Below are positions 2,340 through 24,185 of a stretch of 32,000 bases of DNA, in pieces. The position numbers and the translations under genes were made by a program. The notes beneath the pieces are model-generated. The model made no database searches. It saw only the letters and a program-made list of their open reading frames with translations, and was not told the origin of the DNA. Each line of letters begins with the position of its first letter. Within the stretch, counting starts at the first letter, position 1. Origin of the DNA: Brasilonema sp. UFV-L1 (lineage in GTDB: Bacteria; Cyanobacteriota; Cyanobacteriia; Cyanobacteriales; Nostocaceae); assembly GCF_012912105.1 (NCBI RefSeq), contig NZ_QMEA01000013.1:39894-71893 (forward strand). Direction: 5' to 3'.

Positions 2340-2607
2340 ATATCGAAAGCTCAAATTAACCGCTCGTAGATGTATCCCCACATCTCCCCAAACATACCCA
2401 ATTTGGGGAGATGCTACGAGCGTGCAGTCTAAGGTCTAAGACCTACGTTGATTGAGTCATGACACTAATAAATGAACGCCAGTTTGTTGCTCTGTCGATT
2501 GTCATTAAGGCACGAATTAATTACATACAGATTCGCGTGTGGCAGTCCTAACAAGCTCTTTCAACTTTGACGAGGCAAACATTACTTAGTAATAAGGCTG
2601 ACAGAAT
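2340..2607 (+). ncRNA. Candidate IscB omega-RNA (guide about 2340-2360, scaffold about 2361-2607); boundaries approximate
   Basis: Lies immediately 5' of iscB in the same orientation. Nested hairpin: CGCTCGTAG(2361-2369)/CTACGAGCG(2414-2422) enclosing CATCTCCCCA(2381-2390)/TGGGGAGATG(2404-2413). Long-range pair GTTGATTGAG(2447-2456)/CTCTTTCAAC(2556-2565). Sequence blocks and compensatory stems are shared with the leader of the second iscB copy. Confidence 0.5.
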
Positions 2608-3879
2608 ATGTCAAATTACGTTTTTCTCATTGACCAAAACAAAGTTCCACTCAATCCAGTACATCCAGCACACGCAAGGAAACTACTAGACTCTGGAAAA
2701 GCAGCCGTCTTTAGGCGTTATCCGTTTGTACTGATTTTGAAGCGACCTATTGAAAATCCCAATGTGTATTCGCTTACGCTCAAAATCGACCCTGGTTCTA
2801 AGTTTACTGGTATTGCTCTGGTGACTAATCAAGGTGATGTTGTTTGGGCAATGGAGCTACAGCATCGAGGTCAACAAATCAAAGATGCCCTAGAACATCG
2901 CCTAGCAATGCGTAGAGGACGCCGGAACCGCAATACACGTTATAGACAAGCAAGATTTCTCAATCGCAAACGTCCAAATAGTTGGTTAGCTCCATCATTG
3001 CGGCATCGTGTTTTAACAGTTGAGACTTGGGTCAAACGTTTGCAAAAGTTTGCTCCTATTGGTTCTTTTGCTCAGGAATTAGTGAAGTTCGATACTCAAG
3101 CTATTCAAAATCCTGAAATATCTGGAACTGAGTACCAGCAAGGAACGTTGCACGGTTATGAGTGTCGTGAGTATTTGTTAGAGAAATGGAATCGGCAGTG
3201 TGCCTATTGTGGTGTTAAAGACGTTTCTCTTGAGATTGAGCATATCCAACCAAAATCAAAAGGTGGGTCTGACAGAATATCTAACCTTTGCTTAGCTTGC
3301 CACAAGTGCAATCAACGCAAAGGAAACAAGGATATTAAGGATTTCTTAAAAGGTAAGTCAGACGTGTTGAACCGAGTATTGAGACAAGCCAAAGCACCAT
3401 TGAAAGATGCAGCATCTGTAAATGCTACCAGATGGGCACTCTTCAGTGCTTTGAAATCTTTCGACTTACCTGTCAGCACTGGGACGGGAGGGCAAACCAA
3501 GTTCAACCGGATTCGTTTTGAATTACCCAAAGCTCATTGGATTGATGCAGCTTGTGTTGGTGTGGTCGGAACCATAAAACTGGTCACCGCCAAAATTCTA
3601 AAGGTAAAAGCAACTGGTTTTGGTGGTAGACAGCGATGTCAGACAAACAAATTTGGCTACCCACAAAAACACCGCCCATTGCGTCCAATACTTGGTTTTT
3701 CAACTGGTGACATTGTTCGGGCTGATGTTCCCAAAGGTAAATATACAGGAACTTTTACCGCCCGAGTTTGCCCAATGTCGCATGGTTACGGAGAGTTTGT
3801 GATCAATAAAAAACGGAGGTCAATCAAATTGGACTACTTAACGCCTGTTCATCGTAAGGATGGTTACGACTATGCATGA
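2608..3879 (+). CDS. iscB: IscB, OMEGA-type RNA-guided nuclease (RRXRR/HNH/split RuvC), copy 1, apparently intact
   Basis: N-terminal PLMP-like domain (MSNYVFLID..PLNPVHPA.ARKLL). RuvC-I KIDPGS (D61). Arg-rich bridge RRGRRNRNTRYRQARFLNRKRP. RuvC-II E in QELVKFD. HNH with CAYC...EIEHIQPKSKGGSDRISNLCLACHKCNQRKG. RuvC-III HWIDAACVG. Confidence 0.85.
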   Translation: MSNYVFLIDQNKVPLNPVHPAHARKLLDSGKAAVFRRYPFVLILKRPIENPNVYSLTLKIDPGSKFTGIALVTNQGDVVWAMELQHRGQQIKDALEHRLAMRRGRRNRNTRYRQARFLNRKRPNSWLAPSLRHRVLTVETWVKRLQKFAPIGSFAQELVKFDTQAIQNPEISGTEYQQGTLHGYECREYLLEKWNRQCAYCGVKDVSLEIEHIQPKSKGGSDRISNLCLACHKCNQRKGNKDIKDFLKGKSDVLNRVLRQAKAPLKDAASVNATRWALFSALKSFDLPVSTGTGGQTKFNRIRFELPKAHWIDAACVGVVGTIKLVTAKILKVKATGFGGRQRCQTNKFGYPQKHRPLRPILGFSTGDIVRADVPKGKYTGTFTARVCPMSHGYGEFVINKKRRSIKLDYLTPVHRKDGYDYA

Positions 3880-5641
3880 ATCTGGACAAAATGACCACAT
3901 ATGTACAGATATATCCAGATATCAAGTGACAATTTCTAACCCATCATCTGTTTTTCTTGTCAGCGGCGGTGCCAAAGGGATTACCGCTCAGTGTGTGATC
4001 AGATTAGCCCAGCGTTATCGATGCAAATGGATCTTGCTGGGACGTTCAGAGAACGCCCCAATTGAGCCAGCTTGGGTCAGGGATTCACTAAGTGAATCCG
4101 AATTAAAAAAACGGATTATGGAAGACCTCCTTGCTCAAGGAGAGAAACCTACACCGATGAAAGTACAAAAAGTGTTTAACACGATTTCATCCCGACGAGA
4201 AATCCAAAAAACGCTCTCTACGCTTGAACAAGTAGGCAGTCAGGCAGAATATCTAAGCGTAGATGTGACCAATCCTGTGACCCTACGGGAGAAGCTTGCT
4301 GTTGCTGTTGAGCGCCTAGGACCGATTACCGGCATCATTCACGGAGCCGGAAATCTCGCGGATAAGTTGATTGAAAAGAAAACAGAACAGGATTTTGAAA
4401 CCGTTTTTGCTGCCAAAGTCAAGGGTTTAGAAAATTTGTTGAGTAGCGTGAGTTTGAGTCAACTCGATTATTTAGTGCTGTTTTCTTCTGTTGCTGGCTT
4501 TTATGGCAATGCTGGTCAGACTGACTACGCGATCGCCAACGAAATCCTCAACAAATCTGCTCATCTCGTTAAGCAGTACCATCCCAACTGCCATGTAGTG
4601 GCAATTAACTGGGGTCCTTGGGACAGTGGTATGGTTACTCCGGAATTAAAGAAGGCATTCGCCCAGCGCAATATTGAAGTGATTCCCATTGAAGTTGGAG
4701 CCCAAATGCTGGTTGAAGAACTGAGTGCTGCCCATCATGAAACAGCGCAAGTGATCATCGGTAGCCCGCTAACTCCACCTGCTGAGGCATTAGACCCCGA
4801 GTTACGTAGCTACCGCATCCGTCGCCGCTTAACCCTAGAAGCTAATCCATTTTTGCAAGATCACGTCATTGGTGGCAATCCAGTTTTGCCTGCCACATGT
4901 GCTGTATCCTGGATTATCAATAGCTGCGAACAGCTCTATCCCGGTTATAAATTTTTCCGTTTAGAAAATTTCCAAGTTTTAAAGGGCATAGTTTTTGACG
5001 GTACCCAGGCAAATGAGTTCATTTTAGATGTGCGAGAAGTAACCAAAACTGATGCAAATGAAGTCACGTTTGAGGTTAGAATATGGAGCGAAAAAGAAAA
5101 AGGTAAAATTCGCTTTCATTACACTGGTTTGGTAGAACTTCGCCAACAAAGCTCTGCTTCACCTGTCTATAATCCAGTCGATAATACTTCAAGCAAGACA
5201 ATTACAGGATTGTCTCTTTATCAAAGTAAAACCCTTTTTCATGGATTAACTTTTCAGGGAATAGAACGAGTTTTGGATATCAATGAAAAATCACTAACGA
5301 TGCAGTGTATTTTGCCAAAAATCGAAAATAAACAACAAGGTCAGTTTCGGTCGCACCCCTTTAATCCCTACACAGCTGACGTTTTAGTTCAAAGCGCCTT
5401 GATTTGGAGTCAACATTTACATCAAGTCGGCTGTTTACCTTCAGAAATTCAGCAAATTACACAGTTTAAAAGTATTCCATTTGACCAACATTTTTGGGCT
5501 ACTTTGGAGATAAAAATCAAGACAGAAACGCAAATTATTTGTGATATCACAACCTACGATAGTCTAGGGGAAATCTATATGCATCTATCAGGTGTTAAGT
5601 TTACTATTAGTAAAAGTTTGAAATTTTTAGAGAAGAAATAA
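3860..5641 (+). CDS. Catalytic ketoreductase + polyketide-type dehydratase (PS-DH) portion of the PfaA/HglE-like subunit, now a separate ORF (start uncertain: ATG 3860 or 3872)
   Basis: SSVFLVSGGAKGITAQCVIRLA NADPH motif. Catalytic region SSVAGFYGNAGQTDYAIAN. DH motif HVIGGNPVLP (His codon 4862-4864). The ORF start overlaps the iscB stop by 20 nt. Confidence 0.8.
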   Translation: MVTTMHESGQNDHICTDISRYQVTISNPSSVFLVSGGAKGITAQCVIRLAQRYRCKWILLGRSENAPIEPAWVRDSLSESELKKRIMEDLLAQGEKPTPMKVQKVFNTISSRREIQKTLSTLEQVGSQAEYLSVDVTNPVTLREKLAVAVERLGPITGIIHGAGNLADKLIEKKTEQDFETVFAAKVKGLENLLSSVSLSQLDYLVLFSSVAGFYGNAGQTDYAIANEILNKSAHLVKQYHPNCHVVAINWGPWDSGMVTPELKKAFAQRNIEVIPIEVGAQMLVEELSAAHHETAQVIIGSPLTPPAEALDPELRSYRIRRRLTLEANPFLQDHVIGGNPVLPATCAVSWIINSCEQLYPGYKFFRLENFQVLKGIVFDGTQANEFILDVREVTKTDANEVTFEVRIWSEKEKGKIRFHYTGLVELRQQSSASPVYNPVDNTSSKTITGLSLYQSKTLFHGLTFQGIERVLDINEKSLTMQCILPKIENKQQGQFRSHPFNPYTADVLVQSALIWSQHLHQVGCLPSEIQQITQFKSIPFDQHFWATLEIKIKTETQIICDITTYDSLGEIYMHLSGVKFTISKSLKFLEKK

Positions 5642-21814: not shown

Positions 21815-22000
21815 TGGGTTTGAATCATCAGTTATCAGTGAGCCAGCGCTATACAGTCTGGAAGTCAGTGCGTTGCTGTGAAACAGTGCTGGGCTGGGTT
21901 TCCCGCATCTTGACGAGTGATATTTGTCACTAAATCAAGGCATACCCGCTCAACTTCTGAGGAGAAGCATGAGCGGTTCTTCTGTTGACCATAAATCTCC

Positions 22001-23257
22001 TTAAATCTCGGCATAGCTATATCCATCCTTCCGATGCATAGGTTTTACTTCGTGAGGTTTGCAATAGTGACGAACGCCATTGACGCGAATCTCTAAGCGC
22101 TTCTCGTTTTGAACCACAACGCGACCGACAACACCTTGAATTGTTCTACCGATATCGCCAGTTTTCCAAGGAGTGTTATAGGTTTGACGTGGCTTAGAAC
22201 AAGGAAATCCAAATTTGTCCATGCGACAGAGACGACGAGTACCAAATCCAGTTGCTTTCTGACTCAAAATTTTCTGAGTCAGAATCGCTAAAGATTCTGT
22301 TATCCCAACACAAGCAGCATCCAACCAGTGTTCCTTGGCAAGTCCGAAACGAGATCGGTTGTACTTGGTTTGCCCACCCGTCCCGGTTGTGACAGACAAT
22401 TTTGTTGATCTGAGCACCTCAAACAGTTTCCATCGGGTCGAATTGACTGCACTGGCATCCTTTAAGGGTGCTTTCGATTGCTTTAAGATTTTGGCAACTA
22501 AATCTGGCTTTCCCTTTAGAAAACCTTTGAGGTCTTTTGTCCCTTTCTTCTGATTACACTTGTGACAGGCGAGACAAAGATTAGAAACTCGGTTGCTTCC
22601 ACCATTTGCTCTAGCGGTAATATGCTCAATCTGCAAAGGAACATTCTCTTTAGAACAGTAAGTGCACTTGCGCCCCCACTTTTCTAAAAGGTACTGGCGA
22701 ACTTCGTACCCTGCTAATGTTCCTTGCTGATATTCAACTCCAGAGATTTCAGGATTCTCTAACTTCTGCATATCAAACCGAACCAGTTCCATCCGAATCT
22801 CGCCGATGGGTACAAACTTGCAGAGTCGCTTGATCCAAGTTTCAACCGTCAGAACGCGATGCATGAGGGATGGGGCTAACCATCCTTTTGGACGTTTGCG
22901 ATTGAGATATCGCGCTTTGCGATACCGAGTATTACGCGACCGACGGGCACGACGCACGGCACGGCGAGTCTGCAGCGCATCCTTAATTGCTTGTCCGCGA
23001 TGCTCTAACTCCATTCCCCAGATTACTTCGCTTTGGTCGGTTACAAGTGAAATTCCAGTAACCTTGGAACCCGGATCAATCTTAAGGGTAAGCGGATGCA
23101 CCATTGTATTGTCTACCGCTCGATTTAGAATAAGCGTGAACGGGTAATGCCTGAACACCGCAGCTTTTCCCGATTCCATTAGCTTACAAGCTTGTTTTGG
23201 ATGGACTGGGTTTAATTGTGTTTTGTTGGCATCAATCAAAAACACATAATTTGACAT
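22001..23257 (-). CDS. iscB: IscB, OMEGA-type RNA-guided nuclease, copy 2 (divergent paralogue of copy 1), apparently intact
   Basis: Same architecture as copy 1: MSNYVFLIDANK, KIDPGS, RRARRSRNTRYRKARYLNRKRP, MELVRFD, CTYC...QIEHITARANGGSNRVSNLCLACHKCNQKKG, HWLDAACVG. The C-terminal ~90 aa are strongly diverged from copy 1. Confidence 0.85.
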   Translation of the reverse strand: MSNYVFLIDANKTQLNPVHPKQACKLMESGKAAVFRHYPFTLILNRAVDNTMVHPLTLKIDPGSKVTGISLVTDQSEVIWGMELEHRGQAIKDALQTRRAVRRARRSRNTRYRKARYLNRKRPKGWLAPSLMHRVLTVETWIKRLCKFVPIGEIRMELVRFDMQKLENPEISGVEYQQGTLAGYEVRQYLLEKWGRKCTYCSKENVPLQIEHITARANGGSNRVSNLCLACHKCNQKKGTKDLKGFLKGKPDLVAKILKQSKAPLKDASAVNSTRWKLFEVLRSTKLSVTTGTGGQTKYNRSRFGLAKEHWLDAACVGITESLAILTQKILSQKATGFGTRRLCRMDKFGFPCSKPRQTYNTPWKTGDIGRTIQGVVGRVVVQNEKRLEIRVNGVRHYCKPHEVKPMHRKDGYSYAEI

Positions 23258-23510
23258 CTTCTGTCAACCTGATAATCAGTAATGTTTGCTTCAAGAATGT
23301 TGAGAACGCTTGTTCGGCTGAAAGCACTTGACTTATAAACCGTTCAGTCATTCCTTAACTTTCAGCGACAGAGCTACAAACTAGCGAATTTGTAGGTGTC
23401 ATGACGTTCTCAACGGTGGTCTAATCCTGTCTCTGGTGGGTGAATCCATCTGTTTGCACAGATTTAATTAGGTTTGATTCACCCCTCTCCATTGAAGTAC
23501 CTGGGATTCT
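23258..23510 (-). ncRNA. Candidate IscB omega-RNA of copy 2 (scaffold about 23258-23490, guide just upstream on the minus strand); boundaries approximate
   Basis: Minus-strand leader shares these blocks with copy 1: GTCATGACAC, AGTTTGTAGCTCTGTCG, TTAAGG, AACAAGC, GCAAACATTACT, GACAGAAG-ATG. Hairpin GGGTGAATC(23484-23476)/GATTCACCC(23446-23438) sits at the position of the copy 1 hairpin. Perfect long-range pair GTTGAGAACG(23414-23405)/CGTTCTCAAC(23308-23299). Confidence 0.5.
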
Positions 23511-23666
23511 CCCAGTCTCACAGCGACTGGCGGTTTTCCGAAGGCGAAGGCAGGCATACCTGCTCTTGCGCAGCCGTGGCGTCAACTATAGGGTTACCAC
23601 TTATCAGTTTAGACAATAATCTGTTGATTATTGTTCACTGATTAAGATTATTTCTCAATCAGAGTT

Positions 23667-24185
23667 TTAGCCTTTTCCAGCACTAGCCTTAATACACTTC
23701 TCTACTAAAGGCAAGACCTGATCAACATCTTGCCACCCAAGAATCTCCGTCACTTTTTTCTCTAAGTTTTTATATGTGCGGAAAAATTCGGCTATTTCTT
23801 CTAGTCGATGTCGTGCAAGGTCTTTCAAGGATTTTACAGAAGCGTAACGTGGGTCTTTGTCAGGAACACAAAGGATTTTTTCATCGCGATCGCCACCGTC
23901 TATCATTTCTAGCATACCAATTGGTCTGGCTGCAATCACGCATCCTGGGAAGGTCGGCTCATCTAAGATGACCATACCATCCAATGGATCGCCGTCATCT
24001 GCCAAAGTGTTGGGTACAAAGCCGTAGTCGTATGGGTATTGTACGGACGAGTAAAGTACTCTGTCTAAGGCAAAAGCTTGTAATTCTTTATCGTATTCGT
24101 ATTTATTCTTACTCCCGCCTGTAATTTCAATCAGAACGTTAATCAGACCTGGTTTAGGTTGGGCAGGAATACGAGATAAGTCCAC
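23667..24185 (-). CDS. ppa: Family I inorganic pyrophosphatase
   Basis: [58 protein letters not shown], 172 aa. Confidence 0.95.

Follow-up and report, generated by a model that had tools for sequence, protein, structure and literature searches.

What lies at positions 2340-2607 of the 32,000-nt stretch of the Brasilonema sp. UFV-L1 genome (G000) analyzed here (the window; contig NZ_QMEA01000013.1, GCF_012912105.1), between an SDR gene (1461-2258) and a 423-amino-acid ORF (2608-3879)? An earlier note, made from the letters alone, had taken this leader for an omega-RNA with its guide, because its proposed fold recurs in front of a second iscB gene in the window. Our analyses lead to the same reading through an Rfam match (RF02033), an IscB equivalog behind it, compensatory base pairs, a flank-derived guide, and mapped element boundaries: 2360-2607 is very probably the HEARO scaffold, that is, the omega-RNA of the downstream IscB, and some 16 to 20 nt of host flank ending at 2359/2360 would be its guide.

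HEARO RNAs, curated in Rfam since 2009-2010, reportedly go back to work by Weinberg et al. in 2009 (Nature 462:656), and the guide function of omega-RNAs is said to go back to Altae-Tran et al. in 2021 (Science 374:57). That HEARO is the IscB omega-RNA has been described in a preprint (Meers et al., bioRxiv 10.1101/2023.03.14.532601), by Goltsman et al. (PMC9755519), and in a 2026 review (PMC13565253). According to these sources, the omega-RNA lies upstream of iscB and is bounded by the transposon end, with its guide outside the element; after excision by TnpA, the ribonucleoprotein cleaves the donor joint, upon which recombination restores the element; most iscB genes have no neighboring tnpA, and IscB elements tend toward the orientation of the upstream gene (bioRxiv 10.1101/2023.03.14.532601; PMC9755519; PMC13565253). 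The Rfam model RF02033 does not include downstream elements of the RNA (Meers et al., bioRxiv 10.1101/2023.03.14.532601).

HEARO matches in front of two iscB genes

An Rfam search of the whole window at curated thresholds returned three matches, one tRNA and two HEARO (RF02033). HEARO copy 1 lies at 2379-2585 (+) with 87.6 bits and copy 2 at 23279-23482 (-) with 88.4 bits (gathering score, 83; E of about 1e-16 to 1e-17 for both under the covariance model in the window), each spanning model positions 1-211 of 211. The covariance-model search proposed in the earlier note thus places both leaders above the gathering score and over the full model, as its omega-RNA reading anticipated. Both scores exceed the threshold by only about 5 bits, and the first domain of copy 1 aligns poorly to the model, with low posterior values. 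A permissive search of the leader regions (2200-2700 and 23150-23700) yielded no family besides HEARO. Each match is on the strand of its iscB gene, with 22 nt (copy 1) or 21 nt (copy 2) between the model end and the start codon. The features of the two loci are as follows.

2340-2359 (+): predicted guide region of omega-RNA 1; host flank corresponding to codons 2-8 of the interrupted KR-DH gene; sister-copy homology stops here
2360-3939 (+): whole iscB-1 element, 1,580 bp; ORF-less sister copies share CCGCTC...TTTCTAR, and the host frame is restored
2361-2422 (+): first scaffold domain, one long hairpin; outer stem 2361-2369/2414-2422, inner stem 2381-2392/2402-2413 (minimum-energy fold)
2427-2431 (+): pseudoknot 5' strand GUCUA, pairing with 2567-2571 (UUGAC) (Rfam structure line)
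2432-2444 (+): small hairpin AGGUC-UAA-GACCU (Rfam structure and fold)
2447-2565 (+): core three-way junction (RNAalifold consensus and pair counts)
2447-2456/2556-2565 (+): long-range helix of the three-way junction (RNAalifold consensus)
2469-2473/2482-2486 (+): core of hairpin 2 of the three-way junction (RNAalifold consensus)
2497-2505/2539-2547 (+): helix 3 of the three-way junction, with an inner variable hairpin (RNAalifold consensus)
2567-2585 (+): pseudoknot 3' strand (2567-2571) and conserved tail GAGGCAAACAUUAC, which ends the Rfam model (Rfam structure)
2585-2596 (+): extra hairpin CUUA-GUAA-UAAG, past the end of the Rfam model and ahead of the start codon (compensatory change in 3 of 4 pairs among copies)
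2608-3879 (+): iscB-1, 423 amino acids, RNA-guided endonuclease IscB (Pfam, NCBIfam)
3880-3939 (+): far end of the element, common to the ORF-less copies; in-frame GTG 3926, ATG 3860, and ATG 3872 read into the host gene
3940-3942 (+): CCC, candidate target-adjacent motif and also part of host codons 8 and 9; follows the element in 5/5 sister copies and is kept in the empty site of relatives
23485-23504 (-): predicted guide region of omega-RNA 2 (..CCAGGTACTTCAATGGAGAG), adjoining the first stem on its 5' side; boundary placed from structure only
23258-23484 (-): omega-RNA 2 scaffold (Rfam HEARO match 23482-23279, fold)
22001-23257 (-): iscB-2, 418 amino acids, 60% identical to IscB-1 (Pfam, NCBIfam)

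Both ORFs behind the leaders are full length, carry the Pfam RRXRR and HNH domains, and belong to the NCBIfam equivalog NF040563, "RNA-guided endonuclease IscB" (464.7 bits for iscB-1 and 459.7 for iscB-2; cut-off, 175). IscB-1 also matches solved IscB structures, TbaIscB (2.5e-44) and OgeuIscB (3.1e-30). Its RuvC-I D61, RuvC-II E157, HNH H212, and RuvC-III H310/D313 align with the OgeuIscB motifs, with IDPGS, ELVKFD, EIEH, and HWIDA set against IDPGR, LELNRF, YHHV, and HYLDA, respectively.

A fold conserved on diverged sequence

The sequence blocks that the earlier note had listed as common to the two leaders (GTCATGACAC, AGTTTGT.GCTCTGTCG, TTAAGG, AACAAGC, GCAAACATTACT, and GACAGAA.ATG) were all found where it had placed them, as were the stems it had drawn. 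In copy 1, CGCTCGTAG (2361-2369) pairs with CTACGAGCG (2414-2422) around CATCTCCCCA (2381-2390) and TGGGGAGATG (2404-2413); in copy 2, the corresponding hairpin is formed by GGGTGAATC (23484-23476) and GATTCACCC. The long-range helix is perfect in copy 2 (GTTGAGAACG/CGTTCTCAAC) and kept as 8/10 pairs in copy 1 (2447-2456/2556-2565), and an internal hairpin of different sequence occupies the same position in both. The common architecture of the two leaders consists of a first hairpin domain, a small hairpin, and a long-range helix that closes a three-way junction, followed by a conserved single-stranded tail and a short hairpin before the start codon. Folding z-scores were -4.65 for copy 1 and -3.51 for copy 2, none of 200 shuffles being as stable.

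For covariation, 13 of the 26 HEARO matches in the genome were aligned and a consensus structure was predicted by RNAalifold. Compensatory changes, with both sides changed and the pair kept in at least one sequence, were present in 20 of the 26 consensus pairs across the 13 copies, and 91.0% of cells were able to pair, versus 65.3% with shuffled columns and 35 to 44% with partners slid by 1 to 3 columns. The covariation score was 0.710 versus 0.226 for shuffled columns, a value reached in 0/500 shuffles, so that the folding and covariation check suggested in the earlier note came out in its favor on both counts. Because the MAFFT alignment shifted 2 rows at the pseudoknot (it also misaligned the variable first domain), the pseudoknot was counted by anchored extraction. 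Its three core pairs were kept in 14/14 genome copies, with double changes at two positions: one that is A-U elsewhere is U-A in copy 1 and C-G in L008, and one that is C-G elsewhere is G-C in copy 2 and U-A in L005.

Set against each other on this consensus, the two window copies have the same bases in 14 pairs, a change on one side in 2, and compensatory double changes in 9, while 1 pair is broken in copy 1. This excess of compensatory changes over the single broken pair implies selection on the fold after the copies diverged, and with leaders only 59% identical it bears out the claim of conserved structure on diverged sequence. Two ORF-less omega-RNAs, L016 and L024, carry extra GC-rich hairpin insertions of 25 to 45 nt in variable loops; these insertions mark where the scaffold tolerates added sequence.

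Boundaries of the element

BLAST of the element against its own genome recovered five short ORF-less sister copies (on contigs C297, C138, C89, C66, and C166), in which the omega-RNA is joined, about 24 nt after its end, to the 60 nt immediately downstream of the stop codon of iscB-1. Homology between these copies and copy 1 runs from CCGCTC (window position 2360) to ...TTTCTAACCC (3942), and no two copies have the same flank 5' of CCGCTC. The empty site of the C66 copy was found in three related genomes, as ATGACATATATCT-CCCC-AAAAAC in G004 and G007 and with CCC-A in G006; it equals the left flank, four C's, and the right flank, and the element therefore begins with CCGCTC and ends with ...TCTAG, with 2 nt left ambiguous.

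For copy 1, an orthologous unoccupied site was sought in 40 relatives and not found, as they hold only genes of about 69% identity and no orthologous PKS cluster. From these genes the native N-terminus and the SDR-to-KR-DH synteny could nonetheless be established. When 2359 is joined to 3940, the result is ATG ATA TCG AAA GCT CAA ATT AAC CCA TCA TCT GTT, which reads MISKAQINPSSVFLVSGGAKGIT; the homologous KR-DH genes of three related genomes start MPTTQIRPSSVFLVSGG, MRKKSQITSSSVFLVSGG, and MTTPTQVRPSSVFLVSGG, and the restored joint MISKAQINPSSVFLVSGG resembles MPTTQIRPSSVF..., MRKKSQITSSSVF..., and MTTPTQVRPSSVF... of homologous genes. The restored host reading frame permits a junction at 2357-2361 only, within which the register is ambiguous over an AACC repeat (2358-2361 and 3938-3941). 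Sister copies, the C66 empty site, and the restored host frame together place the iscB-1 element, on sequence comparison, at 2360-3939, where it splits a polyketide-synthase KR-DH gene between codons 8 and 9.

The junction repeats (AACC in copy 1, CC in the C66 copy) reflect motif similarity, not a fixed-length duplication. Its ends are well defined, a conserved motif abuts one of them, empty sites are scarless, and target-site duplication is absent. These features group the iscB-1 element with ISC elements of the IS200/IS605 type; it is non-autonomous, having no transposase of its own. Two other boundary assignments were rejected: AAG, which precedes the element in three copies, also occurs in the unoccupied flank of G001 and G003 and is not part of the element, and the odd far end of the C89 copy is not a different boundary, as another dispersed repeat abuts it. 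That copy (locus L053, about 3551-3752) is missing the terminal 17 nt of the far end and adjoins a dispersed repeat, about 115 nt long and abundant both in its own genome and in relatives.

The boundaries of the iscB-2 element were approached through the ppa-panD spacers of relatives, among which no uninterrupted copy of the site was found. The spacer of relatives is without about 1.75 kb present in UFV-L1; in G007, the sequence absent from the spacer takes in about 160 nt around the element (23485-23592 and 21840-21910). These surroundings resemble dispersed short repeats (units GCGGGAAACCC..CAGCACTG..CAC) on contig C279 and in the spacer of G001, and the iscB-2 element appears to have been inserted into a repeat. 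A far end at ...GGGAAACCC (21896) had been considered and was withdrawn, since GCGGGAAACCC belongs to the host repeat.

Predicted guide, candidate target-adjacent motif, and proposed cycle

Characterized IscBs have 16-nt guides. Guide 1 would be the flank ending at 2359, with CGAAAGCTCAAATTAA (2344-2359) as the most likely 16-nt guide. The earlier note had correctly placed the guide outside the transposon end and had let it end at 2360 (GAAAGCTCAAATTAAC, 2345-2360), one base off the boundary derived here yet inside the junction ambiguity. It had also proposed a genomic search for protospacers, which gave no second match for guide 1 (2340-2359) at up to 1 mismatch or for guide 2 (20 nt) at up to 3 mismatches, an outcome to be expected of a guide aimed at its own empty site.

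In the register in which the element starts with CCGCTC, the right flank begins with CCC in 5/5 copies (CCCATC, CCCCAA, CCCCCC, CCCTTT, and CCCTTC). This constancy at the far end suggests CCC as the likely target-adjacent motif; a longer motif, WRCCC, was rejected since the C66 empty site has CT, not AG, before CCCC. At the occupied site, the guide is followed by CCG instead of CCC, which parallels the 1- to 2-base difference that protects occupied sites in Geobacillus stearothermophilus elements (bioRxiv 10.1101/2023.03.14.532601).

By analogy with the known systems, a transcript would start in the host flank, run into the element, and then bind IscB. The flank-derived guide and the short far-side motif, most likely CCC, would together correspond to the empty site that excision would leave; IscB would cut this site, and repair from the sister chromosome would put the element back. 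For the window loci we infer each of these steps (transcription, processing, binding, and cleavage), as well as the CCC motif.

Copies across the genome and alternative readings

Of the 26 HEARO matches in the genome, 20 exceed the curated score; tblastn recovered 7 complete iscB genes and 1 truncated at a contig end. For one of these genes, on contig C41 (48469-49743), no HEARO match is listed. Behind two weak HEARO matches, L025 and L026, lie ORFs of 383 and 373 amino acids, neither closely homologous to IscB-1 and both possibly IsrB-like. At both window loci the element is oriented like its upstream gene, which is SDR/PKS for copy 1 and ppa for copy 2. Transposase could come in trans from among the Y1 matches elsewhere in the genome.

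Might the two loci be relics, with a recognizable fold in elements that no longer move or cut and a guide function that is unselected today? Each element is single-copy and old, its nearest relative in the genome being only 68% identical in DNA; none of the 14 Y1_Tnp transposase matches in the genome lies beside either element, so that an adjacent tnpA is lacking; and the Rfam scores are near threshold. No promoter-like site stood out either: a sigma-70-like scan found none upstream of copy 1 and a single weak one some 145 nt ahead of copy 2, and shuffled sequence yields such sites at least as often. We nevertheless regard decay as improbable, given that both ORFs are full length with their catalytic residues in place, that the leader differences are mostly compensatory, and that three ORF-less copies belonging to this subfamily (on C297, C138, and C89) are nearly identical, which indicates recent movement of the subfamily.

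A cis-acting 5' untranslated region that mainly controls translation or stability of the iscB mRNA, rather than supplying a guide RNA, would account for a leader that is always on the strand of the gene and whose last hairpin (2585-2596) stops 11 nt short of the start codon. It is hard to reconcile with the roughly 18 of 26 HEARO matches that stand alone without an IscB gene behind them, the fold being kept in ORF-less copies both of the 13-copy alignment (L012, L016, L018, L024, and L007) and among those added for the pseudoknot (L001, L002, L004, L005, and L011). Guide function has, moreover, been shown biochemically for the HEARO family (bioRxiv 10.1101/2023.03.14.532601; PMC9755519), and we give this alternative very little credence. 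A chance or low-complexity resemblance limited to the ribosome-binding region, the least probable account, has nothing in its favor and is already refuted: the conserved blocks and stems extend over all of the scaffold, some 245 nt long in copy 1 and 227 nt in copy 2, with a covariance-model E of about 1e-17 and no shuffle folding as well.

Comparison with characterized IscB systems

The omega-RNA reading agrees with the described systems on most points. RF02033 and both window copies are alike in the pseudoknot, the three-way junction, the GAGGCAAACAUUAC tail, and the position upstream of an HNH/RuvC ORF, and, as for HEARO generally, many copies occur per cyanobacterial genome, many of them without an ORF. 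Copy 1 forms a single long hairpin in its first domain, whereas the model has a stem enclosing two small hairpins, and a further hairpin (2585-2596) extends beyond the 3' end of the model, as Meers et al. saw for the family. As in IscB omega-RNAs of OMEGA systems, the guide of omega-RNA 1 would lie 5' of the scaffold and be made of flank sequence. Like OgeuIscB (structures 7UTN, 7XHT, and 8CSZ), IscB-1 has a PLMP-like N-terminus, an arginine-rich helix, RuvC I-III, and HNH; it is shorter (423 versus 496 amino acids), the two aligning over two stretches only (E, 3e-30), and its likely CCC motif differs from the NWRRNA of OgeuIscB (PMC12660989).

Further parallels are with the ISGst IscB elements (Meers et al. 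2023), which likewise have no tnpA, take as guide the flank at the omega-RNA end, have the motif abutting the opposite end and first element bases that resemble it (here CCG versus CCC), and share the orientation of the upstream host gene. The protein-less copies share both ends, like the PATE-like derivatives of ISGst, whereas the motif is GC-rich here and AT-rich (TTCAT) in the G. stearothermophilus ISGst elements. The iscB-1 leader is thus an ordinary copy of the already described HEARO RNA and is not new.

The interrupted host gene

The native ATG of the KR-DH gene is at 2337; the gene is interrupted after codon 8 by the iscB-1 element and resumes at 3940. From three starts near the far end of the element (GTG 3926, ATG 3860, and ATG 3872), no stop codon intervenes before host sequence resumes, and the listed ORF 3860-5641 is a chimera of the element and the PKS KR-DH (host part within 3926-5641). 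Judging from these frames, the KR-DH gene may still be translated with a changed N-terminus. In G014 (locus L029), the same SDR gene is the immediate upstream neighbor of the KR-DH gene, and no iscB separates the two; the SDR gene (1461-2258) therefore does not belong to the IscB insertion. Ahead of the PKS start, 2291-2333 is a short AT-rich dispersed repeat (AATTCAAAACTCAAACTTTAAAATTCAAAATTGGG), with dozens of copies at 87 to 94% identity in its own and related genomes.

A comparable arrangement occurs at L012 (C66, about 3589-3931), where an ORF-less element sits in codons 5-6 of another host gene (ATG ACA TAT ATC T/CC CCA AAA, the slash marking the insertion), in sense orientation and with a 2-nt junction ambiguity; its far-end ATG is in frame and opens a 213-amino-acid ORF. 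It is conceivable, if rather unlikely, that such elements are tolerated in the first codons of host genes, a far-end in-frame start restoring the gene and the host promoter supplying the guide transcript. If true, this would amount to mutual accommodation between an OMEGA element and a host gene, of which we know of no description.

Meaning for the locus and the family

As a discovery the leader matters little, being a textbook instance of an RNA family with known function. Its value for annotation is more immediate: the leader is to be labeled an omega-RNA, the element set at 2360-3939, and the downstream PKS gene marked as interrupted, with its native start at 2337. Beyond this locus, the genome offers a compact natural series, comprising 26 omega-RNAs, 7 to 8 IscB genes, ORF-less copies that are nearly identical, and, in relatives, true empty sites, for the spread of OMEGA elements in cyanobacteria or for the reading of IscB motifs.
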